This document shows positions 14,051-43,554 of a DNA stretch of 64,000 bases, piece by piece. A program made the translations under genes and the position numbers. Source of the stretch: an uncultured Methanolinea sp. (GTDB lineage Archaea > Halobacteriota > Methanomicrobia > Methanomicrobiales > Methanospirillaceae); the NCBI GenBank assembly GCA_964598545.1, contig CAZRCH010000003.1, positions 1,145 to 65,144 on the forward strand, written 5' to 3'. Numbering within the stretch: the first letter of the stretch is position 1; every line of letters starts with the position of its first letter. The notes beneath the pieces are model-generated. The model was not told the origin of the DNA and made no database searches. It saw nothing but the letters and a program-made list of their open reading frames with translations.

Positions 14051-14062
14051 AAATGGGGGATA

Positions 14063-28064: not shown

Positions 28065-28442
28065 TCAGGACTTCCCGAAGTACCTTTTCACGTTCGCCTG
28101 GAAGAGGTACCAGAGAATGATTCCCGAGATGATGATCCCGATCAGTGCTCCCATGCCACTGGTGAAAAGGTCAATAATCCCCATTACCAGGCTGATAATA
28201 GTGATGATGACCCCTACCGTCCATACCCAGCCCCATGCCTTGAAGCATCCGATACCGAGGATGATCTCGATAATTCCGACGATTATCAGGATAAAACCTA
28301 ATACAAGGCCGATTACCCCCCCGATCGGGCCTCCGATTACTGCACCGAATGCTGCGGCGCCGAGTCCGCCGAGCAGCATGATCAATCCCCCGATTATCCA
28401 GAGGATACCGATAATGGTGACTCCCAATGGTCTTTCTGCCAT
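28065..28442 (-). CDS. small 4-TM membrane protein, paralog A
   Basis: Starts MAERPLGVTIIGILWIIGGL and ends ILWYLFQANVKRYFGKS. Close paralog of the neighbouring gene. Confidence 0.7.
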   Translation of the reverse strand: MAERPLGVTIIGILWIIGGLIMLLGGLGAAAFGAVIGGPIGGVIGLVLGFILIIVGIIEIILGIGCFKAWGWVWTVGVIITIISLVMGIIDLFTSGMGALIGIIISGIILWYLFQANVKRYFGKS

Positions 28443-28560: not shown

Positions 28561-28917
28561 TCAGGTCTTCCCAAAGTATGCTTTCACATTAGGCCTGAAG
28601 AGATACCATAGGATGATTGCAGAGATAACGATACTGATGAGACCGGTAGAGAAGAAACTGGCGAATCCCATGATCAGGTCGATGATGGTGATAACAACCC
28701 CTGCGGTCCATACCCAACTCCATGCACTGAACGCACCAATGCCGAGAATGATTCCCAGTATTCCAAGAATCAGGTAGACAAAGCCGAATGGTTCCATGAG
28801 CGGACCAAGCGTCTCGCCGAAGAGAACCACAAAGCCGATTCCCCCAAACAGCGTGACCAGCCCGCCAATGATCCAGAGAATCGCAACAATCGTGACGCCT
28901 AACGGTCTTTCTGCCAT
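28561..28917 (-). CDS. small 4-TM membrane protein, paralog B
   Basis: Starts MAERPLGVTIVAILWIIGGL and ends ILWYLFRPNVKAYFGKT. Confidence 0.7.
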   Translation of the reverse strand: MAERPLGVTIVAILWIIGGLVTLFGGIGFVVLFGETLGPLMEPFGFVYLILGILGIILGIGAFSAWSWVWTAGVVITIIDLIMGFASFFSTGLISIVISAIILWYLFRPNVKAYFGKT

Positions 28918-29301: not shown

Positions 29302-31137
29302 ATGTTGGACCGCATTAGGAGATTTATCCATACCATGACGACCAGGTTCATTCCTGGCAGGGGGGAGGAAGAGGCAGCCACTCGTTACTCCTGGGAAGAT
29401 TTCCTGTTTTTTATTCCGCTATTCAGGCCATATCTTGGCGCAATCGCCGTTATTCTCTTTTTAACAGTTATTCGTTCATTCTGCATGGCGTTCATCCCGT
29501 ATTCATCAAAGATCCTTATAGATTCGGTCTTTGGGAACAATCCGATCCAGATTCCGGCTTCCCTCGGGGGGATTTTGAGCCAGCCGGTGCATCAGGTCAT
29601 CACCTTCATGGGAAGTTCACTTTTTTCGTTTATTCTTGTAGTCATTATCGTAGGATTGGCCATCGGTGTTTTTGATATCATCCGCACTTACCTGACCATC
29701 AGGGTCAGGGAAGGTTTCATCATATCACTCCGAACCTCCCTTTACACCCACGTATTGTTTGTTCCCATCCGGTTCTTTCGATCCAAAAAGACCGGGGCAA
29801 TCATCTCCCGGATCTCATCGGACACCGCATACCTCCAGGGGATGGTCATCACACAGTTTCCACAGATCACCTCATCGGTGTTTACCCTCCTGTTCACCAT
29901 AGGGGCGATGATCCTCATCTCGCCAAATCTTACACTTGTATTCGCAGGTGTTTTTCCGATTATGGCGGTGATCAACTACCTCATTTCAGGAAAGATACGT
30001 GCATTGACGTATATGGAACTTGAAAGGCTCTCAGAGATCTTTGCCAGGATGGGTGAAGCAATTGCGGGGATAGAGATGGTAAAGAGCCACGGGGCAGAAC
30101 AGAGAGAAGCAGAAGAGATAGCAACCCAGGTCCGTGACCTGGGAGACACCAGGATCGGCAACAGCCTTCTCAGCGCCCTGGGGGAAAAGAGCCGTGCCCT
30201 CTTTGCAGGTGCAGCCTTTCTTATCATTCTCTGGATTGGTGGCAATCAGGTATTGAGCGGTATCATGTCTCTTGGGGATTTCGTGGCATTTATCGCCTTT
30301 CTTCCCATTGTCGGTGCTGCATTGCAATCCCTCCTCTCTTTCCCACTTCAGATGCAGGGAAGCATCGCAGCTGCAGGAAGGATAAAAGACCTCTTCTCAA
30401 TCCTGAAGGAATACGACCCTGCCGACCGGTCCGAGAGACCGAAGGCCGCTATCAGGGGAGAGATTATCTTTGAAAACGTCTCTTTCTCCTATGATCAGCG
30501 GAGAACTGTCCTTCACAACATTTCGTTGCACGTCGGGCAAGGAGAGATTATCGGGATCATCGGTGAGACTGGCGGAGGCAAGACGACGCTCATACAATTG
30601 ATCCTGAGGTTTTATCCTCCCACAAAAGGAAGAATCCTCCTTGACGGGATCGATATTTCGAAAATCCGGCATGACCACATCAGGATGCTGATCTCATTTA
30701 TCTCCCAGGATCTATTCTTGTTTCATGATACCATCAGGAATAATATACGCTATAGTATCCCCCACGCTACTGACGACGAGATCATTGCCGCCGCACAAGC
30801 TGCTCAACTCCATGAGACCATCCAGACGTTTCCTGAAGGGTACGACACTATTGTCGGAGAACGGGGCCTCCAGCTTTCGGCTGGTCAGCGGCAGCGGATC
30901 TCTCTCGCCCGTGCATTTCTCCGCAATGCACCGATCATGATTATGGACGAACCCAGTTCGTCGCTGGATCCGGAAACCGAATACCGGCTCCTTTCTATAC
31001 TCGCTGAAAAAGCACGCGGAAAAACCGTGATTATCATCACGCACCGCGAAAGTATCCTCCCGGTCTGTGATCGGGTTCTTCAGCTGGTCGATGGGGAACT
31101 TGTTGAAAGAAAGAACCATCACCGAAGAATTATCTGA
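29302..31137 (+). CDS. ABC exporter, fused transmembrane + ATPase domains (type I exporter), no N-terminal peptidase domain
   Basis: Six-TM N-terminal half. Walker A GETGGGKTT, signature LSAGQRQR, Walker B IMIMDEPSSSLD, H-loop ITHR. Confidence 0.88.
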   Translation: MLDRIRRFIHTMTTRFIPGRGEEEAATRYSWEDFLFFIPLFRPYLGAIAVILFLTVIRSFCMAFIPYSSKILIDSVFGNNPIQIPASLGGILSQPVHQVITFMGSSLFSFILVVIIVGLAIGVFDIIRTYLTIRVREGFIISLRTSLYTHVLFVPIRFFRSKKTGAIISRISSDTAYLQGMVITQFPQITSSVFTLLFTIGAMILISPNLTLVFAGVFPIMAVINYLISGKIRALTYMELERLSEIFARMGEAIAGIEMVKSHGAEQREAEEIATQVRDLGDTRIGNSLLSALGEKSRALFAGAAFLIILWIGGNQVLSGIMSLGDFVAFIAFLPIVGAALQSLLSFPLQMQGSIAAAGRIKDLFSILKEYDPADRSERPKAAIRGEIIFENVSFSYDQRRTVLHNISLHVGQGEIIGIIGETGGGKTTLIQLILRFYPPTKGRILLDGIDISKIRHDHIRMLISFISQDLFLFHDTIRNNIRYSIPHATDDEIIAAAQAAQLHETIQTFPEGYDTIVGERGLQLSAGQRQRISLARAFLRNAPIMIMDEPSSSLDPETEYRLLSILAEKARGKTVIIITHRESILPVCDRVLQLVDGELVERKNHHRRII

Positions 31138-31446
31138 TTTGAGCCCCCATGTCATCAGCGATGCATTCCGGGATAGGCTTTTTCTGTTACCTGTTCATCA
31201 TTGAAACCCGGGGGCTCGTCATATCTCTCTTTCGTGCAGGGAACCTACCTATGGGAAAACGCAATGTATCTTTCTCTCCTATCCCTGACAAACCGATTCG
31301 GATCGATGGAAAATTCAGACTGTTATCGAACCATCCGAAGAATAAATCAGGATTATTTGATAGGATCAAATCAAAAGAGGATACTCTCTGCGATTCACAG
31401 ATGTTCAAAAAACCCCTCTTATTTGTACTGAAGGTGTTGCCAGCAC

Positions 31447-34047
31447 ATGCCTCCCAATGACCTGACAACGTCCGGACTGGTCGAAAAATGGTCAGCAAGA
31501 AGTGCGGATTCTCCTGCAATTATCGATACATCGGGCATGGTAATCTCATATCGGGATCTTTCCGGAATCATCTCCTCGTGGAAACAGGCACTTATACGCC
31601 AGGGCATCGGTAACGGTTCCCGGGTCGCTGTTGTCCTCCCCAATGGATCGGACATGGCTACAACATTCCTCGGGATTACTGCTGTTGCGACCTGTGCTCC
31701 ATTAAACCCATATTATTCACGTGACGAGTTCTTCTTTTACTTACAGGACTCGGGGTGCGTTGGATTACTGGTCGGCGACAGCTGTCCGATCGCAGCAGAA
31801 GAGGCGGCACAGGATCTGGGAATCCCATGCTACAAGCTCCGACCAATCAAAGAGGTGCTCTCCGGCGTATCCCCGGTTTATGGAGAGGTACACTCACATA
31901 ATCCCATGATACCACCGGTCGTGCCGGATTCACACCCTGAAGACTCCGCCATTATCCTTCATACTTCCGGGACCACAGGGAAGCCTAAAAGGGTGCCGCT
32001 CAGGCAGGATCGCATCTGCAGGAATGCTGCCGCCATTGCAGGAACCCTGCACCTCACTCCTGCAGACCGGTGTCTCAACCTGATGCCGCTCTTTCACGTA
32101 CACGGACTGGTAGGCTGCCTCCTCGCAACCATCTATTCCGGGGGAGCGATCATCACCACCCCGGGCTTTCAGCCGGATAAAATTGCAGGCTGGTTGCGCG
32201 ACCTCGAACCCACCTGGCTTTCCGCAGTCCCTGCAATCCACCATTCACTCCTGCGGGTTGTCGGGAATTATGAAGAAATCACACACCATCTGCGGTTTAT
32301 CCGATCATGTTCGGCCCCGCTCCCCCCATCTCTGCTTCAGGATATGGAGGAGCGATTTAAAGTCCCTGTAATCGAAGCATACGGGATGACGGAGGCATCC
32401 CATCAGATCGCGTCGAACCCACTTCCCCCTGCCTCCCACAAACCCGGTTCGGTCGGTATACCTACCGGCTACACCATCAGGATCCAGGACCGGCGTGGCC
32501 AGGAATGCGATCCCGGCATGCGGGGAGAGGTCTGGATCTGCGGAGAGAATCTCTTCTCCGGATACGAGGATAATCCGGATGCGAATTCCGAAGATTTCAT
32601 GAGCGGTTTCTTCCGCACAGGAGATGAGGGATATGTCGATCCTGAGGGGTATCTGTTTCTCACCGGGCGATTAAAGGAATTGATCAACAAGGGGGGGGAG
32701 AAAGTCGCTCCCCGTGAGATAGAAGAAGTATTCCTGCACTACGCCGGCGTTGACCAGGCTGTCGCATTTGGCATCCCGCACAAAGAACTCGGGGAGGATA
32801 TCGGGCTCATCCTCGTTCCTTCCCCTGGGTACGAACTGGCAATAGCGAATCTCAAGCAGCATGCCCTCCAGCACCTTGCTCATTGGAAAGTCCCCTCAAA
32901 GATTAAAATCATGGACGAGGTTCCAAAAGGCCCGACAGGAAAGGTCAGGAGACGCGATCTTGCAGCGCTCCTATTGGATTTGGACAGGCACCCTGAACCA
33001 TTACCTCGGCATCGCGGGAATCACCCTTGCGAGTGGGAATCCCCTTCCGAACTTGAAGAACAGATCCAGAAAATCTGGGCGGATACACTCCAGAGTGGGC
33101 CTATAGGCCTTGATGAAGACTTCTTTTCTCTCGGGGGATACTCGCTCACTGCCCTGGGAATCACCACAGAACTCGAGCGATCATTTGCGGTCGAGCTCGC
33201 TCCCTCCATCCTCTTCAGTGCGCCTACAATCAGGGAGCTCGCCGAAGTGATAGCAAGGGAAAGATCCGGGGAGCCACTCCCGACTTTGGTCCCGTTCCGG
33301 AAAAAAGGAGACCGGGTCCCCCTCTTTCTCGTCCCGCCAGGGCATGGAAACGCATTTTTCTACCGGGAATTTGCCGCGCTCCTTGGATCGGATCAACCCT
33401 TCTACTCATTCTCCCGGTATCCGATGCCCACAGCTCCCGGCTCTATCGAGGGTATCGCAGCCAGGAATATCGATGAGATCCTTCGGATCAATCCTGAGGG
33501 ACCGTTCCTGGTCGGTGGTTATTGCTTTGGTGCTGTCGTCGCCCTTGAGATGGCTCACCGGTTGCAGGAACGGGGATTGGAAGTGCGGGGCCTGATGATT
33601 ATCGATCCCGACCAACTTCCAAATGGCCCTGATTGGACTTGGGAGCACCCGCAGCAGACCCGGAAAGAGTTCCTTCTATGGCTTATCCGGGGTGGCCCAC
33701 GGCGTTGGTATTGGTTTGTGCCCATTTACATCTCCCGTAAGATCCGCCCACCGCGATTCACTCCTGAAGATCAGAAGCAATTGGAGATCCTCCTCGCCAA
33801 CACCAGAATGCTCCGGGATTACCGCGCCAGGCCTTATAAGGGTCGTGCGATAGTGTTCCACCAGGAGAAGGCTGATAAAACAATGAGAAAACGGTGGGGG
33901 ATCATCCTTGGGGAGTCAGCAAAGTCCATAATTATTCCGGGCACGAAGCACAACGAAGTGCTGGATCGAGGAGGCAGGCGGATAGCGGACCAAATGAGAG
34001 ATTTTTCGAATCTCACAGATAATTATGACCAGATATCTAATCCGTAG
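31447..34047 (+). CDS. stand-alone adenylation - thiolation (carrier) - thioesterase protein (NRPS-like A-T-TE)
   Basis: ANL motifs LHTSGTTGKPKRV, LFHVHGL, EAYGMTEASH, FRTGDEGY...GRLKELINKGGEKV, PKGPTGKVRR. Carrier motif FFSLGGYSLTAL (Ser566, nt 33142-33144). Alpha/beta-hydrolase TE with GGYCFGAVVA (Cys693, nt 33523-33525) and a C-terminal GTKHNEV. Confidence 0.85.
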   Translation: MPPNDLTTSGLVEKWSARSADSPAIIDTSGMVISYRDLSGIISSWKQALIRQGIGNGSRVAVVLPNGSDMATTFLGITAVATCAPLNPYYSRDEFFFYLQDSGCVGLLVGDSCPIAAEEAAQDLGIPCYKLRPIKEVLSGVSPVYGEVHSHNPMIPPVVPDSHPEDSAIILHTSGTTGKPKRVPLRQDRICRNAAAIAGTLHLTPADRCLNLMPLFHVHGLVGCLLATIYSGGAIITTPGFQPDKIAGWLRDLEPTWLSAVPAIHHSLLRVVGNYEEITHHLRFIRSCSAPLPPSLLQDMEERFKVPVIEAYGMTEASHQIASNPLPPASHKPGSVGIPTGYTIRIQDRRGQECDPGMRGEVWICGENLFSGYEDNPDANSEDFMSGFFRTGDEGYVDPEGYLFLTGRLKELINKGGEKVAPREIEEVFLHYAGVDQAVAFGIPHKELGEDIGLILVPSPGYELAIANLKQHALQHLAHWKVPSKIKIMDEVPKGPTGKVRRRDLAALLLDLDRHPEPLPRHRGNHPCEWESPSELEEQIQKIWADTLQSGPIGLDEDFFSLGGYSLTALGITTELERSFAVELAPSILFSAPTIRELAEVIARERSGEPLPTLVPFRKKGDRVPLFLVPPGHGNAFFYREFAALLGSDQPFYSFSRYPMPTAPGSIEGIAARNIDEILRINPEGPFLVGGYCFGAVVALEMAHRLQERGLEVRGLMIIDPDQLPNGPDWTWEHPQQTRKEFLLWLIRGGPRRWYWFVPIYISRKIRPPRFTPEDQKQLEILLANTRMLRDYRARPYKGRAIVFHQEKADKTMRKRWGIILGESAKSIIIPGTKHNEVLDRGGRRIADQMRDFSNLTDNYDQISNP

Positions 34048-34671
34048 TTGTCTGATACCAGAAAAAATTTGAGATCCCGCCATCATTATTCTGCCTCCTT
34101 GCTGTTTTGTATATAGACTAAATTGAGGTTGTTGTCTCGCAAACCTATTCAGTCACAAACCGCCACCGGGGCGTCCCATCGGGGGGTGCGGTGTGAATCG
34201 CATACCAGGGTGGGGAGAAGGGAGCCCCTACAAAATTCATACGATTCGCCAATCCTGCCTATACCAGATAGCGAAGAGCTGTTTTCCTCTTACGCTTTAT
34301 AAAAACCGAAACTTATCGATTTGAGTGTCCATTAAAATAAGGTATTGTGAAGAGATACTGGTTGCAGGAATGGCAGCGGTGACCAGGGAGGGGGTGAATA
34401 GGCCAGGCAGCACTTTGGACCTGTGAAACTGGAACCACTGTGGGATACCCTAATTCATCGGCTGCATTCTTTCCCTCCCTCTACTTTTTAACATATTAAA
34501 AAAGGAAAAATCGATTCATTACAAATACCACGTATGGGAGATATTTAATTCGCAGTCTCGCCTACAAGACCTGCGATATCATTTGACCTATGCATAATAG
34601 ATGGCCTGGTTATTTCCTGGAGAACCAGGGGGCAATATATGAATGCAACAGTGTTGAAAAGATTTCAAGCA

Positions 34672-35145
34672 TTATTTTTGGATTTTTCCGTTCAAATGAA
34701 GGCTCAGCTTATCCCCGATGGCTATCCCATTCCTCTCGCAGTATCCCCCGTTCACTTCGATCAAATACGCAGAAACGGAATCTGACGTAATCATCTCTTT
34801 GCTCATGGGGATAAGGTCCCTTTTAATATCGACAACTGAAAGATCCGGTGAGATTATTATCATATCCAGTGGGATCAGAGTATTCTTCATCCAGAACCCA
34901 ATCTTGTGAGGTTTTTCAAATACAAAGATCATTCCGGAGTGTTCGGGAAGGCTCTTCTGGAACATCAGGCCTTTCGTCTTTTTTTGGGGTGTATCTGCAA
35001 TTTTTAGATTGATTCTTCGGTGATTTCCATGCTGGCTGGAAATGATGGCATAAGGTTGTGTTCGAAAATACCTTCTGTATATCAGAAATAGGCCTATGCT
35101 AATGCCTAGGCATATGAATATGGCGATATCCAAATCCATGAACAA
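34672..35145 (-). CDS. DUF192 family protein with an N-terminal membrane anchor
   Basis: TM helix (IAIFICLGISIGLFLIY), then ADTPQKKTKGLMFQKSLPEHSGMIFVF...IGFWMKNTLIPLDMIIIS, the DUF192 core pattern. Confidence 0.7.
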   Translation of the reverse strand: MFMDLDIAIFICLGISIGLFLIYRRYFRTQPYAIISSQHGNHRRINLKIADTPQKKTKGLMFQKSLPEHSGMIFVFEKPHKIGFWMKNTLIPLDMIIISPDLSVVDIKRDLIPMSKEMITSDSVSAYLIEVNGGYCERNGIAIGDKLSLHLNGKIQK

Positions 35146-35217
35146 CGATCATAGGATATTTACCATCCTATTTTGATAAAGATCTCTTCGAGCCATTATC
35201 CCAGAATAGACCACAAT

Positions 35218-35236
35218 CTATATTAGCCTTTAAAAT
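35218..35236 (+). promoter_or_regulatory. AT-rich TATA-box-like elements upstream of the 56-aa ORF (possible leaderless transcript)
   Basis: ctatatta (35218-35225) and tttaaaat (35229-35236) lie 15-33 nt upstream of ATG 35251. No Shine-Dalgarno-like GGAGG in between. Confidence 0.3.
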
Positions 35237-35250
35237 CTTTTTACATTTAT

Positions 35251-35421
35251 ATGGCATACGAGAAACCCAGACTGATTGATCTGAGTGCGCATCCTGAAAC
35301 AGGACATGGTCAGATGAGGGAATGCAAATCAGGGAGTGGTGCAGCTGGACCCTGTATTGGCGGTTCAGGCCCCGGTGTTGATATTTGTACAGCGGGGCAG
35401 GGCGGATTCAGGCCACCTTAA
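35251..35421 (+). CDS. candidate RiPP precursor peptide, 56 aa, Gly/Cys-rich core with three CxxGxG units
   Basis: My translation: MAYEKPRLIDLSAHPETGHGQMRECKSGSGAAGPCIGGSGPGVDICTAGQGGFRPP*. The ORF is below the 60-aa cutoff of the supplied track. It has a charged N-terminal 'leader' and a Gly-rich C-terminal half with Cys25/35/46. It lies inside the rSAM/PqqD cluster, flanked by AT-rich spacers. Confidence 0.6.
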   Translation: MAYEKPRLIDLSAHPETGHGQMRECKSGSGAAGPCIGGSGPGVDICTAGQGGFRPP

Positions 35422-35471
35422 ATACGTATCTAATATTACAGCGTTAATTTAACAAATTTCAAACATATTCA

Positions 35472-35484
35472 TTTTTTATCTTTT
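35472..35484 (+). terminator. oligo-T tract(s) downstream of the peptide ORF (archaeal-type terminator candidate)
   Basis: attttttatctttt lies about 50 nt after the TAA. Confidence 0.25.
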
Positions 35485-35726
35485 CAGAATTCATATCCAT
35501 TAAATAACTTTTTCAAATTATCATAATAATTAAAGGATAGCGTCTCATTGCCATGGTATATCTCTAACCCAGAATAAGAAATGAAATTCCAGGATCCGAC
35601 AGGAGTCAGGGTGCAAAGAAGAGGTATATGAACGTATACTACTCGTACTAAGGATTGTTCGGAAAAACTATTCATCGAAAAAAGTAGTTCACATAGGAAT
35701 ATCCCTGGAAATTAAACTACATCATT

Positions 35727-36971
35727 ATGGTCACACGACTGATTGATCAAAATAATAAATATATATCGTTCGATCAACCGGAGGTTCCTGGCTTTCTGTT
35801 TACTTCATGCCCCCCACTTCTTTCCCTTATTCAACTATTGAATCGGAATAGATTGCATAATGAACCATTTCCTAATGATTCATGGAATAATATCGTTCAT
35901 TTTGCACAAAAAATGCATTTGACACCCCTTCTCTATTCTACACTTAAATCTAAAGAAAATGTTATTCCTCCTCCTGAAATTTTCATGCAATTGAAATCGT
36001 TCTATCAAGCAAATGCGGCCCGAAATCTTTTTTTCACTCATAGCCTGCTTGTTTTGTTAACCGAATTAGGGAAAAAAAACATACAGGCTATACCATTGAA
36101 AGGGATATATCTTGCCAATTGCGTGTATGATAATCCCTCTGCAAGACAGATGAACGACCTGGACATCATGGTCCGTTGGGAGGATGTTCCAGCTGCGTGG
36201 GGTATCGTTGAGAACCTGGGATTCAAAGCTTCCGACACGTTCCATCTTGATGATACCTATCGTCGGATAAAGCACCATGCGCCTGATTTTCTTCATCCAT
36301 CCGGAACCAGAGCGGAAATTCACTGGAATATTCTCTCTCCGAATGGTGGCAATAGAGGGAAAAGTCTGGAAGACATGATCTGGCTTCACACTATGCCAGG
36401 AGAGATCTTGGGAAAAAAAGCACTTTTTTTAAGACCGGAACTATCCATACTTCATTCTACGATTCATCTGACATTCCTTCACATGTTTAACTCCGGGATC
36501 CGCGATATTTATGATATCGATAATATTCACAGGAAATTCCGTGGTACTATTGACTGGGAATTTCTCATGGCTTTTTCGAAGAGGTTCAGGTTTGAACGGG
36601 CACTACACCTTGTTCTTGCTCTTACCGATATCATCACAGGCTCAGATATTTCAGGTGAATTGAATAAAAATGGCCTTCATCTTGAAATTCCCGATAGCAT
36701 TCTCATTTTTGCGGTGAATGAGATTATACGGGGAGGTTCAAATGACAGCCTTTCAATAAAGTTATTGACATCAAATCCAGGCCCTTTTGTAACAACACGT
36801 GCATTGGTGAACTGGTTTTTCCCCGGTCGTGACGAGATAAGAGACAAATATCATGTACCTCCGGGTCCTTTTGGGGTGTATCGTTGTTATCCAATCCTCA
36901 ATTACTATCGAGTTACCCATTTTGACAAGATAGTACGCGATTTTTCCTTTGGCAGATGGATGAACGGGTGA
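35727..36971 (+). CDS. uncharacterised nucleotidyltransferase family protein (PF14907/NTP_transf_5-like)
   Basis: LKGIYLANCVYDNPSARQMNDLDIMV matches the family hallmark (KG..L...Y.....R...D.D.lV). Followed by the typical HH..D / EIHW region. 414 aa. Confidence 0.7.
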   Translation: MVTRLIDQNNKYISFDQPEVPGFLFTSCPPLLSLIQLLNRNRLHNEPFPNDSWNNIVHFAQKMHLTPLLYSTLKSKENVIPPPEIFMQLKSFYQANAARNLFFTHSLLVLLTELGKKNIQAIPLKGIYLANCVYDNPSARQMNDLDIMVRWEDVPAAWGIVENLGFKASDTFHLDDTYRRIKHHAPDFLHPSGTRAEIHWNILSPNGGNRGKSLEDMIWLHTMPGEILGKKALFLRPELSILHSTIHLTFLHMFNSGIRDIYDIDNIHRKFRGTIDWEFLMAFSKRFRFERALHLVLALTDIITGSDISGELNKNGLHLEIPDSILIFAVNEIIRGGSNDSLSIKLLTSNPGPFVTTRALVNWFFPGRDEIRDKYHVPPGPFGVYRCYPILNYYRVTHFDKIVRDFSFGRWMNG

Positions 36972-37064
36972 CATACAGCTCTTTAAATGAAAGAAGAAAA
37001 AAATATTACCATCAATTTGCTTAAGATATTTCATTCATTTTTTGATCTGTCCTCTCACTCATCA

Positions 37065-38222
37065 TCACCCGAAAAGCCTTGTTCCGGGGAACAGCCCGGC
37101 CTCTGCAGCATCCTCACAGAACTTATGCCCTGCGAGGAGATCGTGATATACATAATAATTCCCTGCAATACACTGACCGAGGCATATGTTCTTCATGAGG
37201 CATCGCGCACAGATACCCTTCAGGCCGTCGGGAAGGTGTTCCCGCAAATCGTTGAGTTCACGGGAATTTTCCCAGATGTCCCTGATATTATCATCTTTTG
37301 CGTGACCGAAACAGAGCTCGGGGACATTCTTTCCTATCCCGCAAAGGGCAAACGTTCCATCGTGAAGCACTCCGAGGATCGTGAAGATACCGCATCCACC
37401 ACAGGCATTGTCCAAATCGAACATTGCCGAGAGCGGAATAAAAGCCTTCGGGATGTTGGTCAACAGGGGAATCCCAATCTCTTGGCGGAGCTCTTTTATG
37501 ATCCAGTTCGACAATGCGATTTGCTCCTGCACCGTCACCGTCTCTCCCTTCTGCTCCATCACCTCCCCCCGCACCGTGGGGGTGATAAAATTGTATTTCA
37601 CCGATGAGGCACCCAGATCGCGGGCATACCGGGCAAGGCTCTCGATTTCATCCCCGTTCCGGCCGGCAACTGCCATGATCACCTGTGGATGGATCCCGGT
37701 CTCGACGAGTGTCCTGACTCCCTGGGACGCCCTCTCGAAGGAGCCGGAGACCCCCCTCATCCACTCGTGATTCTGTTTCATGCCATCGATACTGATCGAG
37801 ATAAAATGGCCCTTGCAGGACTTGATGAGATCCGCGATGTGGGGTGTCATGGCAACCCCGTTGGATTCAATGGAGAGCGCAAGCCCTTCGTCCCTGATAA
37901 AACGAAGGATCGGAATAATGTCCGGGTGGATCAAAGGCTCTCCCCCGGTCAGTTTCACTGTAGTAAGCCCAATCTCTTTTGCCTCCGTCACAATTTTTTT
38001 GAAGAGCGCGAAGGGAAGCGCCTTTTTTGAAGTATCGGCATTCAGGAAGTCGGGGGCAATCCAGCAGTGCCGGCATGCCATGTTGCAGTCCCCTGTGAGG
38101 TAAAAATAGAGAGTCCGGAGTGGAGGTATGATCTTTTTTTCTTCCGGACTCGTGAGAGCATCACTTGCGTCCATACTCATCAGAACAATTAAAGGGCAGG
38201 ATGCCCCCCACGTATATTCCAT
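37065..38222 (-). CDS. radical SAM enzyme with a C-terminal SPASM domain (PqqE-like peptide maturase), copy 2
   Basis: CxxxCxxC = CNMACRHC. GGEPL. SPASM: CGGCG...GTFALCG and CARCLMKNICLGQC (CxxCx5Cx3C). Confidence 0.88.
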   Translation of the reverse strand: MEYTWGASCPLIVLMSMDASDALTSPEEKKIIPPLRTLYFYLTGDCNMACRHCWIAPDFLNADTSKKALPFALFKKIVTEAKEIGLTTVKLTGGEPLIHPDIIPILRFIRDEGLALSIESNGVAMTPHIADLIKSCKGHFISISIDGMKQNHEWMRGVSGSFERASQGVRTLVETGIHPQVIMAVAGRNGDEIESLARYARDLGASSVKYNFITPTVRGEVMEQKGETVTVQEQIALSNWIIKELRQEIGIPLLTNIPKAFIPLSAMFDLDNACGGCGIFTILGVLHDGTFALCGIGKNVPELCFGHAKDDNIRDIWENSRELNDLREHLPDGLKGICARCLMKNICLGQCIAGNYYVYHDLLAGHKFCEDAAEAGLFPGTRLFG

Positions 38223-38268
38223 CTCATCGTATCTGTCATCCGATACAGAGAGTATCCGTCCATGATCT

Positions 38269-39393
38269 TCATTTCTGCGATTCCTTTGGCAGGTTGACGA
38301 TTCGCCCTCCGTGTTCCAGGAACCGTTTCAGGCAGCCGTCTGGGCTTGGGGCAAATACATTCCCGGTTCGGGTATAGCTGCTTGCCGGGCAGTTCCCCGT
38401 GCATGCCATCTGCCATGGACAATCGGCACATTCGGGAAACGTGGAGAGCGGGATTGTATAGCGGTTTCTTAAACGGTTCAATTCAGGATGATCCTGCCAA
38501 ATTCTAAGTAAACGGTCACGATTAATCCGACCCAGTTCGATGTGGGCGAGCATGTTGCAGGGTACAATCACTCCGTCCGGGCGGACAGCGAGCTTGCCCC
38601 ACATGCACCCGCACCCTGCCAGGTAGCCCCTTCCAGGGATTGCCCGCCCTTCGGCTCGTGCCTTCTCCATCTCCTGGAAAGTTCTGCCCAGTGCCAGGGG
38701 ACCGTCTGCAGCACTTATCCGCCCGTGATAGTGTTCTGCCAGGAGAAGGGATCTCATCATCGCATCGCAAAACTCGGCCGGCGTCAACCCGACTTCATCG
38801 GGATTCTCCCGGGCAACTCCAAGGTAACAGGTGCTGTTGGTGGAAATGGAGGGCATGCCAATCTCATCGAGAAGGAGGTGGACAGTATTTTCAAGATCAT
38901 CAAGGTTGTACCGGTGAATGGTAATCCTTGACGTGATGGGAACGTTCGCATCCTGGAGCGTTCGAACTCCCCTCATCGCTGCTGCAAAGGAACCTGGGCC
39001 TCTCAGGGAATCATGCGTCTCGGAGCAGGACCCATCAACCGAGATCTGCACGTAGTCACAGCGGCCGGTAGACGCAATAAATTCAGCGTGTTCGGGACGG
39101 ATGAGCCCCCCGTTTGAGAGGATCGAGAACCGCATGCGGTTTTCCACGACCGCTTCGATGATATCCAGTAAATCATCCCTGATGAATGGTTCCCCGCCTC
39201 CAATACAGACAGACATCACCGCGCAGTCACCGAGTTCCCTGCAAAACGCAGCCCATTCATCAGTGGGGAGTTCAGTTTTGGTATCAGTCGGACTGGTCCT
39301 CTGATAACAATATTTACATTTCAGATTGCATCGAGAGGTGATGTCCAGGTCCATGCTTTTTGGAGACTTCATCAGCTTTCTCGATTCAACCAT
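38269..39393 (-). CDS. radical SAM enzyme with a C-terminal SPASM domain (PqqE-like peptide maturase), copy 1
   Basis: CxxxCxxC = CNLKCKYC. GGGEPF. SPASM: GCGCMWGKLAVRPDGVIVPC and CADCPWQMACTGNC. Confidence 0.88.
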   Translation of the reverse strand: MVESRKLMKSPKSMDLDITSRCNLKCKYCYQRTSPTDTKTELPTDEWAAFCRELGDCAVMSVCIGGGEPFIRDDLLDIIEAVVENRMRFSILSNGGLIRPEHAEFIASTGRCDYVQISVDGSCSETHDSLRGPGSFAAAMRGVRTLQDANVPITSRITIHRYNLDDLENTVHLLLDEIGMPSISTNSTCYLGVARENPDEVGLTPAEFCDAMMRSLLLAEHYHGRISAADGPLALGRTFQEMEKARAEGRAIPGRGYLAGCGCMWGKLAVRPDGVIVPCNMLAHIELGRINRDRLLRIWQDHPELNRLRNRYTIPLSTFPECADCPWQMACTGNCPASSYTRTGNVFAPSPDGCLKRFLEHGGRIVNLPKESQK

Positions 39394-39660
39394 TATTCAC
39401 CGGTCCTATAACCTTCCCACCTGTTCCGTCCATGTCACCGTATTCTCTTCATGAAAGAGAACAATGCTTTTCCTCTTGATAATACGGCATCCGGGTTGTT
39501 GATTACCAAAAATGGAGGGCTATCATATTATAAAGGATCGTATAATTCCAAGGAATAACTCCATTCTTATTCCTGACACGGCATTCACACTGGACTGATA
39601 ACAGGGCTCTGCCGGGAGGGCATGCTCCAATCGTTCCCACTCCCCGCTCAAAAATGCCGA

Positions 39661-40518
39661 TTAAGACAGGTACTCCCAGAATGATCCATCAAGGGCAGCT
39701 CGAAGGATACCACAGGATAAATGTGATACCGCATCACAGCTGCGATGGAAGAGTCCCATATGCCAATCAGCATAGGTATCGTCATTATTTTCTTTTCGAA
39801 GGCAGATGCTGCTCACCTGGACTGCAGACTGATAGAGAAGGGATGCGGCCTGGCCTTTCCCAATGGGGACAGCCTGGTCTTGTTCCCCATGTTCAAGGAA
39901 CCAGATCCCTGTCACCGGAACGGCATACCCTACGTCCCATCTCCGGTCAGACAAATCCCGGATAAGAAAATCACTCCATGTGGGAAGAGGGTGAGCATAA
40001 TAGATTCCTCCGGCCGGTACAAGGAGCACGGCATCATCACACAAGGCATGCCATGGCGGAGGGACACGGCTTGCACATGTGGATTTCCCTGTTGCCCCGG
40101 GAGCTGCGATCATTATTGCCTCCCCATCCCGCTCGAGAAGTGCTGCATGGACGGGAATGCCACCAAACGGCCAGATCGCGAGGTAGAGGGTCTGGATGGC
40201 GAGCATCATCCTCACGATATCCTCTTTTGGGTCCCCGCGTTCGAAGGGAATAATCTCAGTGACGAGATCGGTTCCATCTGTTTTTGCATAGCTGTTCATC
40301 CAGCGCGATCGTGAAGTTACCCAGCATCCACGATGAAATAATGGTGCACCCGAATCCTGGAAACAAAACCTCCAGGAAGGACCAATTCTCCCCCTTTCTA
40401 CTTCACGAAGCATCAGGATGTGTGCAAAGTCCTGCAACCAGTCCTCAAGATCGGCGGAAGCTTCCAATGCCCATCGCTGACCGTTCCGAATGACGAGTTC
40501 GTAGGATTCTCTGGTCAT
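39661..40518 (-). CDS. P-loop HPr-kinase-related protein (SynChlorMet ScmC-like)
   Basis: The Walker A-like loop IAAPGATGKSTCA in the C-terminal half, followed by LCDD..., resembles HprK C-terminal-domain-related proteins found in RiPP clusters. Confidence 0.6.
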   Translation of the reverse strand: MTRESYELVIRNGQRWALEASADLEDWLQDFAHILMLREVERGRIGPSWRFCFQDSGAPLFHRGCWVTSRSRWMNSYAKTDGTDLVTEIIPFERGDPKEDIVRMMLAIQTLYLAIWPFGGIPVHAALLERDGEAIMIAAPGATGKSTCASRVPPPWHALCDDAVLLVPAGGIYYAHPLPTWSDFLIRDLSDRRWDVGYAVPVTGIWFLEHGEQDQAVPIGKGQAASLLYQSAVQVSSICLRKENNDDTYADWHMGLFHRSCDAVSHLSCGILRAALDGSFWEYLS

Positions 40519-40643
40519 GGGGATATCCTGTCTTTTCCCGATTCCTTGAAAATGACCGTTCTATCCTTTCTCATTGCTTTTATAATCATTCCTGTCATGG
40601 GATTCACGACGTGACTGCGAAATGAACTCGAATCCCTTTTCAT
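40515..40643 (-). CDS. possible 42-aa coupled ORF upstream of the HprK-like gene
   Basis: MKRDSSSFRSHVVNPMTGMIIKAMRKDRTVIFKESGKDRISP*. Its TGA overlaps the ATG of the downstream gene (ATGA). No Cys and no recognisable family. Confidence 0.25.
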   Translation of the reverse strand: MKRDSSSFRSHVVNPMTGMIIKAMRKDRTVIFKESGKDRISP

Positions 40644-40690
40644 ACTCGAGAGAGTAATAATTCCGCTATCGGGATCCTCTTCAATAGGGA

Positions 40691-41389
40691 TCAATTACTT
40701 CGTTCACCTCCTGGATAGGTTGGCTGATTCTCATCGATGACTGAGTGTTGCGTCCCTTTGAATGCGCTATTATCACATTCCGCCGGACAATCCGGGAGAT
40801 GCCCCCGATCAATGAACAGCCGGTAGGGTGGGAGAATTGTCCAATCCCGGTCCTTTTCTCCTTTCCACCCGACAAGTCTCCTTCCTAAGTACACCTGGAG
40901 ATCGTATCCTTCATGTGTCTTTACGAGGACCAACCGCTGCTGATACCGCTCCGGAACCATACGGCAAATGAATTTTATCTGTGATATTTTCCAGTAAGGC
41001 TTCGCAAAAAAATGTTCAAACCGTGTGAGTAGTTTTACCCGTTGTTGTGCATATTGGTGATGCCTCATGCCAGCTGATCCCATAGAAACAACCATAGGCC
41101 GATCCTCACGGATACCTCCGGTCACCACTCCCATGATTTCAGAGTGCATGACAGGATGCATGTCATTGAATAGCATGTTGTCACCCCGTGTGCAATACGA
41201 TCCATCAGGGTATTTGATGACGACACGATGAATGATGAGACAACCGGTATTTGCAGGATCACGAAAAATAATCACATCGCCAGGAACAGGTAAACGTTCA
41301 GATACAGGCACCCACTCCAGAATATCATCCTGGAGCAACGCAGGATTCATGCTGGATCCCACATATCTGATCTGCCGGTTACTCTTCAT
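40691..41389 (-). CDS. Sec11/archaeal-type S26 signal-peptidase-like protease lacking a membrane anchor, with a ~130-aa C-terminal extension
   Basis: Motif order GSSMNP ... GDVIIF ... IIHRVV ... TRGDN..FND mirrors archaeal/eukaryal SPase I (SGSMEP / GD / HRV / TKGDNN..D). No hydrophobic N-terminal helix (starts MKSNRQIRYVGSSM). Confidence 0.65.
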   Translation of the reverse strand: MKSNRQIRYVGSSMNPALLQDDILEWVPVSERLPVPGDVIIFRDPANTGCLIIHRVVIKYPDGSYCTRGDNMLFNDMHPVMHSEIMGVVTGGIREDRPMVVSMGSAGMRHHQYAQQRVKLLTRFEHFFAKPYWKISQIKFICRMVPERYQQRLVLVKTHEGYDLQVYLGRRLVGWKGEKDRDWTILPPYRLFIDRGHLPDCPAECDNSAFKGTQHSVIDENQPTYPGGERSN

Positions 41390-41458
41390 GGAAACCGAAA
41401 AATAGTCAGATTTCTCCCGGATAAACCTTTTTATCCCACAATCTCCAATAACGGATCT

Positions 41459-41752
41459 ATGGAATCAAGCAAAACCGCGTCGGGAAGGAGTGTCCTTCGA
41501 AAGAAGGATCAGATAGTACTCAGGGAGGAATTTGATGACTGGGCTCTCCTCTTTGATCCGGATACTGGCATGGTCTGCGGTGTCAATCCTGTCGGCGTGC
41601 AGGCCTGGATGATGATTGACGGGAAACGTACGGTTCAGGATATCAGCAGGATGATCCGGGATTCCTATCCCGATGCACCCGATTCAGTGATTGATGATAT
41701 TACAGATTTTATGAATGAAATAAATGAAAAAGGATATGTCACTTTCATTTGA
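41459..41752 (+). CDS. PqqD-family protein (RiPP recognition element)
   Basis: 97 aa. LFDPDTGMVCGVNPVGVQAWMMIDGKRTVQDISRMI...DDITDFMNEINEKGYV is the canonical PqqD layout. Confidence 0.85.
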   Translation: MESSKTASGRSVLRKKDQIVLREEFDDWALLFDPDTGMVCGVNPVGVQAWMMIDGKRTVQDISRMIRDSYPDAPDSVIDDITDFMNEINEKGYVTFI

Positions 41753-42006
41753 ATACTATTTTCTGCCTGGCACATACACCAAATTCCGGCGAATTTTCCG
41801 TATGTCATCTCCTTTAAGGAGGTGTTGATATTCCTGGGGCATGTATGTATCTGTTTGAAAAAGATAGGGCTATCCTTTTGCCAGGAAATCTGAAGTTTGA
41901 ATACAATGAATCATAAGAGTCACTGGGAGATCAAATCAGGAGACATCCGCTTCATCCAAGTCAGATCCACCTCTGGGACTTTGAGATTCCGGATGAATTT
42001 AGAATA

Positions 42007-42600
42007 ATGAGGGAATATCCAGATGGCCCTGGTGATGAGATGGAATTATATCCTTCCAGGGGTCTGGCCAGGATTTTTCCTAAAGTTGTCCTGCATCGTC
42101 TCAGGTCTTACATCCTTGCATCTTACCTCTCCTGCAATCCTGGGAAAGTACGGCTTTCATACGGACAATATGGACAACCCATTATTGACACTCCTTCCTG
42201 TCCATATACCTTTTCAACGTCTTATTCAGATAAAAATTGGATGCTGGTTATCAGTCACGAAAACCTTGTTGGAGCCGATATTGAGCAAATCAAGGAAAGA
42301 CCAGGACTCAATGCAATTGCACACCGCCTATTTCATGCAGAGGAATTGAGCCATATCAGATTGCTTCCTCGCATTGAACAGATACAGGCATTCTTTCACC
42401 TCTGGACACTCAAAGAAGCATACCTGAAAGGAACCGGGAAAGGGTGGTCGGGCTGGGAATCCCTCCCGGATATGACTCGATGCATCTCCGTGGATTCAAC
42501 AGGTTCTTCGTGGACATGCCCCCGTGTCGAAAAACATCATGCATTCCTGATGACCAGCTCAATGATGTCCAGGGCACTTGTATACGGCACCTCGCGGTAG
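42007..42600 (+). CDS. Sfp-type 4'-phosphopantetheinyl transferase (5' end problematic)
   Basis: LVGADIE (GxDxE) and WTLKEAYLKGTGKG (W..KEA..K). RLRSYILASYL..NPGKVRLSYGQYGQP aligns with HetI-like PPTases. The conserved N-terminal IHLW motif is encoded in frame upstream of ATG 42007 (41917-42006), where no ATG/GTG/TTG exists. Confidence 0.7.
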   Translation: MREYPDGPGDEMELYPSRGLARIFPKVVLHRLRSYILASYLSCNPGKVRLSYGQYGQPIIDTPSCPYTFSTSYSDKNWMLVISHENLVGADIEQIKERPGLNAIAHRLFHAEELSHIRLLPRIEQIQAFFHLWTLKEAYLKGTGKGWSGWESLPDMTRCISVDSTGSSWTCPRVEKHHAFLMTSSMMSRALVYGTSR

Positions 42601-42849: not shown

Positions 42850-43554
42850 TCAGAGATCCCGGATCATCAGGGTTATTCCTCCGGGAATCCCGGCAAAGAA
42901 TGCCTGACCGCTGACAATGAAGTCATCATAGGTAACATATGCCGCACCAGAGAACCCGCATTGTTCACAAGCGCGTCGCGAACCCGGGCCGGTACAGTCC
43001 GCAATTACCCTGGAATACCCCCGGTGCAATGCCAGGGAGAGGATTCTGCTGACCAGGCGGATGGCAATTCCCCTGCCGCGTTCGGTCTCCCTCACCCCGA
43101 GCTGGAAGAGGTGGAGCACCGTCCCGGGTTCCGGATATGCCAGATCCGGGCAGCGTGATTCCACCTCTCCGAGGATCTCCATGCTCTCGGAAAAAAAGGA
43201 GAGAAGCGTGGAGATACCGGGAGAAACCGAACTCCAGTCGGTGGCAAGGTCGCTGCAGAGCGCGAACCCGACCACGTCTCCCGTATCGCATTCGGCCGCG
43301 ATGACGCTCATGCCCTGATCCGCACAGAAATGGAGGTATTCCCGTGCAAAGGGCGAAAACTTGGCAGGATCGATCCCATGGCGACGGGTCATCGGTTCGT
43401 CGTTGAGGAAGACATGGGCATAAAGTGCTGCAGTCTCATCTGCAGTCTCATGGGTGAGTGGTAAAAGGCGTTCTCTCTCTTCATGAACCAATCTTTCGGG
43501 CGGGACCCCGACAACCCGGCCCTTTCCCGAACCTTTCATGGCACAATCACGCAC
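42850..43554 (-). CDS. GNAT-family N-acetyltransferase
   Basis: Acetyl-CoA motif A RGRGIAIRLVSRIL. Overlaps the 3' end of the upstream AI-2E gene, so probably in an operon with it. An alternative start lies at 43539. Confidence 0.7.
   Translation of the reverse strand: MRDCAMKGSGKGRVVGVPPERLVHEERERLLPLTHETADETAALYAHVFLNDEPMTRRHGIDPAKFSPFAREYLHFCADQGMSVIAAECDTGDVVGFALCSDLATDWSSVSPGISTLLSFFSESMEILGEVESRCPDLAYPEPGTVLHLFQLGVRETERGRGIAIRLVSRILSLALHRGYSRVIADCTGPGSRRACEQCGFSGAAYVTYDDFIVSGQAFFAGIPGGITLMIRDL

Follow-up and report, generated by a model that had tools for sequence, protein, structure and literature searches.

The 64,000-nt stretch of DNA analysed here (the window; contig CAZRCH010000003.1 of assembly GCA_964598545.1, from an uncultured Methanolinea sp.) contains, between positions 29302 and 42600, what is probably a single cluster of genes for the biosynthesis of a SynChlorMet-type (Scm) ribosomal peptide, in a Methanoregulaceae-specific subtype with a recruited carrier-protein acylation module. 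The cluster contains two radical S-adenosylmethionine (SAM)/SPASM enzymes (ScmE and ScmF), a stand-alone PqqD-type protein (ScmD), a P-loop protein (ScmC), a precursor peptide (ScmA), a nucleotidyltransferase-fold protein of family PF14907, an S26-type peptidase, an ABC exporter, a protein with acyl-AMP ligase, carrier and thioesterase domains (A-T-TE), and a 4′-phosphopantetheinyl transferase (PPTase). An earlier reading made without database searches (the sequence-only reading) had linked seven elements from position 34672 onward and had pointed to the flanking exporter, A-T-TE protein and PPTase. Translations and family scans recovered all of them, all intact, and the functional unit reaches further left than that start, to about 29302. 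Because the same set recurs in dozens of unrelated genomes, the association of the Scm genes is far beyond chance.

The cassette itself is already defined in databases (TIGR04248–TIGR04252: ScmD, ScmC, ScmE, ScmF and ScmA), and this definition carries no known chemistry. The analysis adds a definition of the precursor family, a corrected accessory set, and the Methanoregulaceae subtype with its Cys-type A-T-TE protein and PPTase. A literature search for the SynChlorMet cassette, for ScmA with radical SAM/SPASM, and for HprK with PqqD and radical SAM found no publication on the cassette; as the sequence-only reading had supposed, the search found no characterised product either. Public annotation is partly in place: the 90%-identity clusters that hold proteins of the window bear the names Methanolinea sp. 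or Methanoregulaceae archaeon, and one member is called 'SynChlorMet cassette radical SAM/SPASM protein ScmE' [Methanolinea sp.]. These names place the host in a lineage of hydrogenotrophic methanogens. The nearest ScmC among GTDB representative genomes is 65% identical.

Two radical SAM/SPASM enzymes and a stand-alone PqqD-type protein

The SynChlorMet identity, proposed in the sequence-only reading, is borne out by profile searches, in which ScmE, ScmF and ScmC score above the NCBIfam equivalog cut-offs and ScmD and ScmA are matched just below theirs. Specifically, ScmE (38269–39393, minus strand, 374 aa) matches TIGR04250 with 505 bits (cut-off 400; residues 10–365 on model positions 1–357 of 358), while ScmF (37065–38222, minus strand, 385 aa) matches TIGR04251 with 449 bits (cut-off 400; residues 34–383 on model positions 2–353 of 353), and both also match PF04055 and PF13186. 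The radical SAM and SPASM motifs described earlier can be read in the translations, namely CNLKCKYC and CADCPWQMACTGNC in ScmE and CNMACRHC and CARCLMKNICLGQC in ScmF. In addition, each enzyme has an upstream CX10-11GX4C element and a final Cys, which complete the full seven-Cys SPASM set.

The two enzymes do not score best to SPASM families outside the biosynthesis of RiPPs (peptides synthesised by the ribosome and modified post-translationally): the AhbD, NirJ, sulfatase maturase and MoaA models score 300–400 bits lower. The PapB, StsB, AlbA and SkfB models give secondary matches far under their cut-offs (80–107 versus 340–850 bits), and the PQQ and mycofactocin models are among the secondary matches of the radical SAM and PqqD-type proteins in the NCBIfam scan. 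The closest solved structures are SkfB, PqqE, CteB and SuiB for ScmE, and BlsE, PqqE and SkfB for ScmF, all of them distant; the next-best family matches of ScmF are AhbD/NirJ/BlsE-like enzymes.

The CxxxCxxC motifs of ScmE and ScmF begin at residues 22 and 46, and the enzymes therefore lack an N-terminal RiPP recognition element (RRE) of their own; this apparent lack of room is consistent with a stand-alone ScmD. ScmD (41459–41752, plus strand, 97 aa) is matched by PF05402 with 43.6 bits (cut-off 23.4), in agreement with its earlier description as a stand-alone PqqD/RRE protein. The hallmarks of a RiPP pathway with a radical SAM/SPASM maturase, comprising the Cys motifs, a leader-bearing precursor and a PqqD-type RRE, are all present. 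The window thus has the two PqqE-like radical SAM/SPASM enzymes, the PqqD homologue, ScmC and the small Cys-containing precursor of the SynChlorMet definition, but it adds the A-T-TE protein and the PPTase, it has ScmA moved from the usual position between ScmF and ScmC to a position beside the A-T-TE gene, and its ScmA and ScmD stay below the curated cut-offs.

ScmA and its precursor family

The 56-aa Gly/Cys-rich open reading frame (ORF) at 35251–35421 (plus strand), listed as unannotated in the sequence-only reading, is a member of the ScmA precursor family, and the family occurs in most related loci. The peptide was searched against all small ORFs of 49 related loci, followed by a scan for the leader motif. 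Weak matches fall almost exclusively in the gap between ScmF and ScmC of bacterial cassettes, which is almost always the place of the bacterial ScmA gene, and the homologous neighbourhoods accordingly do contain a conserved small ORF. The sole NCBIfam match of the window peptide is TIGR04252. This model is too narrow as an ScmA detector, since none of ten other positionally supported ScmA-like peptides passes it, and the ORF therefore escapes annotation.

The family has the leader (K/R)YE(K/R)PxLxxL, followed by a core of 3–16 one-Cys modules of about 10 residues each, with the pattern C-x-x-G-[S/T/N/G]-x-A. In 33 peptides from independent loci (the window and 32 others, 146 Cys), the Cys-Cys spacing is 9–13 with a mode of 10, Gly occupies position +3 in 80% of modules and Ala position +6 in 41%, and Ser, Gly, Thr and Asn dominate position +4. 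The window ScmA has the leader AYEKPRLIDL, a GHG motif, and the modules CKSGSGA, CIGGSGP and CTAGQGG. Peptides of the archaeal clade have a G-x-G motif (GHG, GFG or GYG) 3–5 residues ahead of the first Cys, where a peptidase with a preference for small residues at −1 and −3 could plausibly cut.

Comparison with locus L005, from a related genome, argues that the ScmA ORF is a real gene: the two ScmA orthologues differ at 15 synonymous and 9 non-synonymous codons with every Cys kept, the 45 nt upstream are conserved and include a promoter-like, TATA-like element (CTATATTA/TTTAAAA), and an oligo-T tract follows the stop codon. A decayed second precursor gene (pseudo-ScmA) with three in-frame stops lies at 34285–34401 (plus strand). 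Its frame reads SSYAL-stop-KPKLIDLSVH-stop-NKVL-stop-RDTGCRNGSGDQGGGE-stop, and the segment from KPKLIDLSVH through NKVL to RDTGCRNGSGDQG, in the 624-nt gap after the A-T-TE gene, is detected by tblastn with the window ScmA at E=1.4e-5. Intact ScmA genes occupy the same place, directly downstream of A-T-TE, in loci L047 and L049.

Long ScmA precursors of 110–130 aa with 14–16 Cys occur in Syntrophaceae/Syntrophales loci (L021, 9599–13722; L039, 6532–10564; L042, 392–5028). Each of them is directly followed by its own ScmC paralogue, with up to three ScmA-ScmC pairs per locus, which argues that ScmC recognises its precursor specifically.

Regular companions of the Scm core

The window proteins were compared by tblastn with 42 non-redundant ScmC loci, sampled from Desulfobacterota/Syntrophia, Chlorobiaceae, Omnitrophota, Aminicenantes, Acidobacteriota, Methanotrichaceae, Methanomicrobiales and others, and matches within 8 kb of ScmC were counted; the counts are lower bounds, as many contigs are incomplete. 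ScmD was found in 26 of the 42 loci, ScmF in 24 and ScmE in 23. The S26 peptidase (24/42), the PF14907 protein (14/42) and the ABC exporter (14/42), which had been regarded as extras, turn out to be regular Scm companions in bacteria and archaea, and these counts make them ordinary members of the wider Scm system. The PPTase (3/42), A-T-TE (2/42) and DUF192 (1/42) are rarely found. The ScmC family numbers 2518 representatives at 50% identity with E<=1e-3; the 872 cluster representatives with E<=1e-30 indicate that the cassette is widespread.

Within 10 kb of ScmC, tblastn found no ScmE or ScmF in L024, L031, L032, L034, L037 and L043–L046. In four of these loci (L031, L037, L043 and L044) ScmA-like precursors lie just upstream of ScmC all the same, and the ScmA/ScmC pair may combine with other maturases. 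Two loci carry signs of erosion: in L001, IS1595 and DDE transposases lie beside the Scm core (13562–14416 and 16990–17988), and in a Methanospirillum metagenome-assembled genome a C-terminal piece of ScmC stands by itself, with the other Scm genes absent (L012, 10001–10537).

ScmC (39661–40518, minus strand, 285 aa) matches TIGR04249 with 196.5 bits (cut-off 125), and its homologues carry PF27840:ScmC. G144, K145, S146 and T147 of its P-loop (GATGKST) are invariant. The AF2 model is confident (pLDDT 86.6), and its top Foldseek matches are phosphoenolpyruvate carboxykinases (PEPCKs), with E about 5e-7 and TM about 0.5 normalised to the query. The PEPCK fold class also includes the catalytic domain of HPr kinase. 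The earlier label 'HprK-related' therefore holds at the level of P-loop and fold, but not for membership of the HprK family, as the HprK_rel_A model gives 26 bits (cut-off 200) and a profile comparison with HPrK structures in the PDB is non-significant (E=0.24). From sequence and model, ScmC resembles a P-loop phosphotransferase rather than a member of the HprK family.

The PF14907 (NTP_transf_5) protein (35727–36971, plus strand, 414 aa), identified as such in the sequence-only reading, matches its family with 169.5 bits (gathering score 31.2) over model positions 3–245 of 249 and shows a G-x(n)-DLD motif. The position of its gene varies between Scm loci. A PDB sequence search with this protein, like one with the S26-like protein, returned no match.

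The S26 protein (40691–41389, minus strand, 232 aa) keeps the GxSMxP, HR and GD(N) boxes of Sec11/SipW-type Ser/His peptidases and has no N-terminal hydrophobic anchor, as described earlier, so that it is predicted to be cytoplasmic. Residues G11, S13, M14, P16, H54, R55, G69 and D70 are invariant across 13 archaeal and bacterial homologues. The protein shares its boxes and Ser/His dyad with the nickel superoxide dismutase (NiSOD) maturation protease (TIGR02754) and with archaeal and Sec11/SipW signal peptidases; all of these match weakly and below cut-off, with TIGR02228 at 41.9 bits (E=8.9e-11; cut-off 51.85). The NiSOD protease likewise has no membrane anchor. Unlike these relatives, the window protein has a further conserved domain at its C-terminus, about 110 residues long and with no detectable relatives. 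It is a candidate leader peptidase for ScmA, its presumed substrate. A 219-aa gene call of the same protein (P0183, NCBI and Logan) starts at Met14 and would lose the catalytic Ser13 of GSSMNP; the 232-aa form is the one conserved in homologues.

The ABC exporter (29302–31137, plus strand, 611 aa) has fused transmembrane and ATPase domains (PF00664, 146.7 bits; PF00005, 113.3 bits). Its orthologues, 67–88% identical, lie upstream of A-T-TE in L005, L047, L048, L049 and L052.

A conserved junction with an A-T-TE protein and a PPTase

The A-T-TE protein (31447–34047, plus strand, 866 aa) comprises, in this order, an acyl-AMP ligase (PF00501, 224 bits), a carrier domain with Ser566 in GGYSL (PF00550, 49.8 bits), and a thioesterase with the Cys nucleophile Cys693 in GYCFG, residues 691–695 (PF00975, 74.4 bits). 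Among solved structures, the A domain matches oxalate--CoA ligase best (5ie0, 356 bits) and malonyl-CoA synthetase next. All 11 archaeal orthologues have the thioesterase Cys, as do most of the bacterial homologues inspected; a few bacterial ones have GxSxG. The motif of the carrier Ser is conserved as well. The PPTase (42007–42600, plus strand, 197 aa) is of the Sfp/HetI type (PF01648, 57 bits), with the HetI and AcpT models matching below cut-off. The features of a loading enzyme resembling those of nonribosomal peptide synthetases (NRPSs) are thus present: Pfam domains above cut-off, the carrier Ser, the thioesterase nucleophile, and an ACPS-family PPTase in the cluster.

Close A-T-TE orthologues (54–79% identity) form a small archaeal group, and every one of them with informative flanks adjoins Scm genes, in five gene orders. 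In particular, L005 is collinear with the window at about 84% nucleotide identity. The order in L048 is ABC-BKACE-ATTE-<AsnB-three ScmA-<ScmF<ScmE<ScmC<NTP5 (PF14907)<S26-ScmD (<, opposite strand; BKACE, beta-keto acid cleavage enzyme). L047 and L049 have ABC-BKACE-ATTE and then ScmA about 120 nt on, on the same strand, and in L053 an ScmD 58% identical to that of the window lies immediately upstream of A-T-TE. L052 has ABC-BKACE-ATTE on a contig that stops 130 nt past A-T-TE and is uninformative on that side. The PPTase adjoins ScmD in the window, L004, L005 and L007, with the ScmC proteins of L004 and L007 56–64% identical to that of the window. The junction of the Scm cassette with A-T-TE and PPTase, which the sequence-only reading had singled out, is accordingly conserved across a Methanoregulaceae subclade and not accidental.

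This conserved subtype, with its Cys-thioesterase, is the new point of the analysis. As judged from gene order and domain content, a functional link of A-T-TE and PPTase to the Scm genes is probable; actual acylation of the peptide is a more tentative proposal, to which we give somewhat less than even weight.

Four sister clusters (L047, L048, L049 and L052) carry a BKACE gene between the ABC and A-T-TE genes, and L048 also carries a homologue of glutamine-dependent Asn synthase (the two genes lie at 2993–3838 and 6863–8842 of L048). Neither gene is in the window, where a search for BKACE or AsnB remnants found none; a 103-aa ORF at 31149–31460 is therefore probably spurious.

Neighbouring genes and composition

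A DUF192 protein with an N-terminal membrane segment (34672–35145, minus strand) had been counted as a seventh element. The gene is present (PF02643, 101.5 bits), but its place in the system is not upheld: outside the window it was found only in L005, one of the 42 related loci, and there it is 59% identical in amino acids and 69% in nucleotides, compared with about 84% in nucleotides for adjacent genes. Given this distribution and poor conservation, DUF192 is probably a bystander. A GNAT gene at 42850–43554 (minus strand) was considered as a missing acyltransferase and rejected as a conserved member, being absent from L005 and all other loci. It sits between the PPTase gene and an AI-2E transporter gene, and its 8-nt overlap with the latter suggests that these two are co-transcribed.

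The GC content is 0.40–0.52 over 28–42 kb and 0.55–0.59 in the flanks. Nucleotide identity to L005 is 83–84% in the cluster and mostly 86–90% in the collinear flank past the PPTase, with one 568-nt block at 80%. Low GC and lower identity are compatible with an acquired or faster-evolving island; a search of the window for tRNA genes, Rfam families and flanking repeats as island boundaries found none.

Genes for two tandem paralogous small membrane proteins (28065–28442 and 28561–28917, minus strand; 125 and 118 aa) lie within the low-GC zone, a short way upstream of the ABC exporter. The starts of both genes share an 85-nt repeat with 76% nucleotide identity, and there is a weak DUF7144 match. 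These proteins could be candidate immunity or accessory proteins.

A proposed pathway and its relation to known systems

On the best reading of the sequence, the product would be a Cys-repeat peptide, cross-linked under leader guidance by radical SAM enzymes, probably through thioethers. It would further undergo phosphorylation or derivatisation, cleavage and export, and possibly acylation. ScmD is very likely the protein that binds the YEKPxLxxL leader and brings the core to ScmE and ScmF. The C-x-x-G-[S/T/N]-x-A modules may then be processed iteratively by ScmE, ScmF or both; the likeliest outcome, about which we are evenly divided, would be one small thioether ring in every module, derived from its Cys and akin to those of ranthipeptides or sactipeptides. 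ScmF may perform a second kind of chemistry, as its AhbD/NirJ/BlsE-like secondary matches would suggest.

The proposed modules recall ranthipeptides and sactipeptides (PapB/freyrasin, CteB/SCIFF, SkfB and AlbA), in which a radical SAM/SPASM maturase and an RRE act on Cys-containing cores. Freyrasin consists of repeated CX3D one-Cys modules, and the one-Cys repeats of ScmA resemble these. The Scm module, however, has no acidic acceptor, the cassette has two different radical SAM enzymes and a separate RRE protein, the known systems lack ScmC and S26 partners, and the thioether is here only predicted. A lanthipeptide-like route, in which ScmC would phosphorylate Ser/Thr, followed by elimination and Cys addition, is unlikely because position +4 is often Asn, Gly or Gln and because a lyase/cyclase is absent.

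Somewhat more tentatively, ScmC could use ATP to phosphorylate or otherwise activate the precursor, with the PF14907 protein elaborating that group. This would parallel a lasso-peptide tailoring pair, the HPr-kinase homologue PadeK of paeninodin and the nucleotidyltransferase PsmN of pseudomycoidin, where P-loop HprK-like and nucleotidyltransferase-fold proteins likewise occur in a RiPP cluster beside a PqqD-type RRE. In the lasso systems the HPr-kinase homologue phosphorylates a precursor Ser, and the nucleotidyltransferase then adds hexose to the phosphate (PMC8498205). ScmC, in contrast, is like HprK in P-loop and fold only, with Foldseek preferring PEPCK, the Scm cluster has no lasso cyclase or protease, and ScmA has no conserved C-terminal Ser.

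Cytoplasmic removal of the leader may be the task of the S26 peptidase, which we hold to be as likely as not, with the cut possibly falling after the conserved G-x-G shortly before the first Cys; the ABC transporter would probably export the product. For the acyl branch we propose, below even confidence, that the PPTase primes Ser566, that the A domain loads a small carboxylic acid, and that the Cys-thioesterase hands this acid to the peptide or to a pathway intermediate. The fullest version, in which the Methanoregulaceae subtype makes a hybrid of a radical SAM cross-linked Cys-repeat peptide acylated with a small oxalate- or malonate-like acid, with the A-T-TE protein loading its own carrier and the Cys-thioesterase serving as peptide acyltransferase, is somewhat unlikely as a whole.

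The joining of a RiPP cluster to acyl-activating or carrier-protein machinery has precedents in hybrid acylated RiPPs (goadvionins, lipolanthines, selidamides and lipoavitides), which have been described as rare (bioRxiv 10.1101/2023.10.25.564083). In goadvionins, an acyl unit bound to an acyl carrier protein is transferred onto the peptide (PMC8784127). These systems are bacterial, of lanthipeptide or avionin type, and are acylated by GNATs with fatty or polyketide chains, whereas the window has an archaeal host, a predicted radical SAM-modified peptide and an activating domain of oxalate/malonate-ligase type. Its acylation is hypothetical, and with no conserved GNAT its sole candidate transferase is the Cys-thioesterase.

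Weighing the single-cluster reading

Several points weigh against a single Scm-type cluster with an acyl branch. Because no product or enzyme of any Scm cassette was found to be characterised, all chemical steps above are inferred. Both ScmA (TIGR04252, 20.4 bits, E=4.6e-4; cut-off 35) and ScmD (TIGR04248, 91.8 bits; cut-off 100, and the best match by 64 bits) are below the curated cut-offs. The S26 assignment is based on motifs and a sub-threshold HMM match, and its AF2 model, from a shallow alignment, is poor (pLDDT 57); this poor model gave no Foldseek match at E<=1e-3. Position +4 is S/T/N in only about half of the modules and Gln in the third module of the window, and a fixed Cys-to-(+4) acceptor is therefore unproven. 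Furthermore, bacterial A-T-TE homologues of about 40% identity number in the thousands, and in bacteria A-T-TE followed by a PPTase forms an autonomous two-gene pair with no Scm genes nearby. Conversely, one Methanoregulaceae-type Scm cassette (L001–L003) has no A-T-TE, PPTase, PF14907 or ABC genes, so that the acyl module is not required for the core chemistry. Finally, neighbourhood conservation within one family could come partly from shared ancestry.

The points on the acyl module lead directly to the rival that survives best, according to which the Scm cassette (ScmA, ScmC–ScmF, S26 and PF14907) makes the peptide alone, and ABC, A-T-TE and PPTase, joined by BKACE in relatives, belong to a pathway of their own, for a small molecule or a lipid, kept adjacent by descent. 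Besides the self-contained bacterial pair and L001–L003, it can call on 36 loci, bacterial and other, that were reached by way of ScmC, none of which has A-T-TE beside the cassette. Yet at least five rearrangements, with A-T-TE identity down to 54%, have left the two sets together. A-T-TE has ScmA or its pseudogene directly downstream, on its own strand, and in L053 it has ScmD directly upstream; PPTase and A-T-TE bracket the Scm genes instead of sitting together; and the only exporter of the cluster is on the A-T-TE side. We therefore regard two independent neighbours as unlikely, though a serious contender.

It is improbable that the product is an intracellular peptide-derived cofactor, like PQQ or mycofactocin, or a Cys-rich metal-binding peptide, with S26 and ABC serving maturation or trafficking instead of secretion. 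Such a product would fit the PqqE-like ScmE and ScmF, the PqqD-like ScmD, the PQQ and mycofactocin models among their secondary matches, the Cys/Gly-rich cores, and hosts that are strict anaerobes rich in metalloenzymes. Cofactor precursors, however, have an invariant short target motif, whereas ScmA cores have 3–16 modules, hypervariable inter-Cys residues and several paralogues per locus, as is typical of secreted RiPPs; a dedicated exporter and a leader peptidase are common, and the neighbourhoods have no conserved partner oxidoreductase.

That the cluster yields no product and is what remains of a decaying island gained by horizontal transfer, as its low GC, its one ScmA pseudogene, the absence of the BKACE and AsnB of sister loci, and the IS insertions (L001) and lone ScmC fragment (L012) of related loci might suggest, is very hard to reconcile with twelve ORFs that are all full length with intact catalytic motifs, with the excess of synonymous differences in the remaining ScmA, and with the collinearity of the whole cluster with a related genome.

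Implications for archaeal peptide chemistry

Characterised archaeal RiPPs are essentially limited to haloarchaeal lanthipeptides, and archaeal radical SAM RiPPs have been predicted but are uncharacterised (PMC12144867). The precursor family, with its leader and modular C-x-x-G-[S/T/N]-x-A repeats, together with the accessory set of S26 peptidase, PF14907 protein and ABC exporter, turns an orphan database entry into a testable RiPP class. A radical SAM RiPP from a methanogen would extend both the natural-product chemistry of Archaea and the small set of RiPP hybrids, above all if a carrier-protein acyl module takes part. If true, the acylated hybrid would give Archaea their first case of RiPP acylation that depends on a carrier protein, and would represent a new RiPP/NRPS-like logic; its makers would be methanogens living alongside syntrophic bacteria that have the sister cassette. 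As the cassette is common to syntrophic Desulfobacterota/Syntrophia and methanogens, we speculate that its product may have a role in anaerobic consortia.

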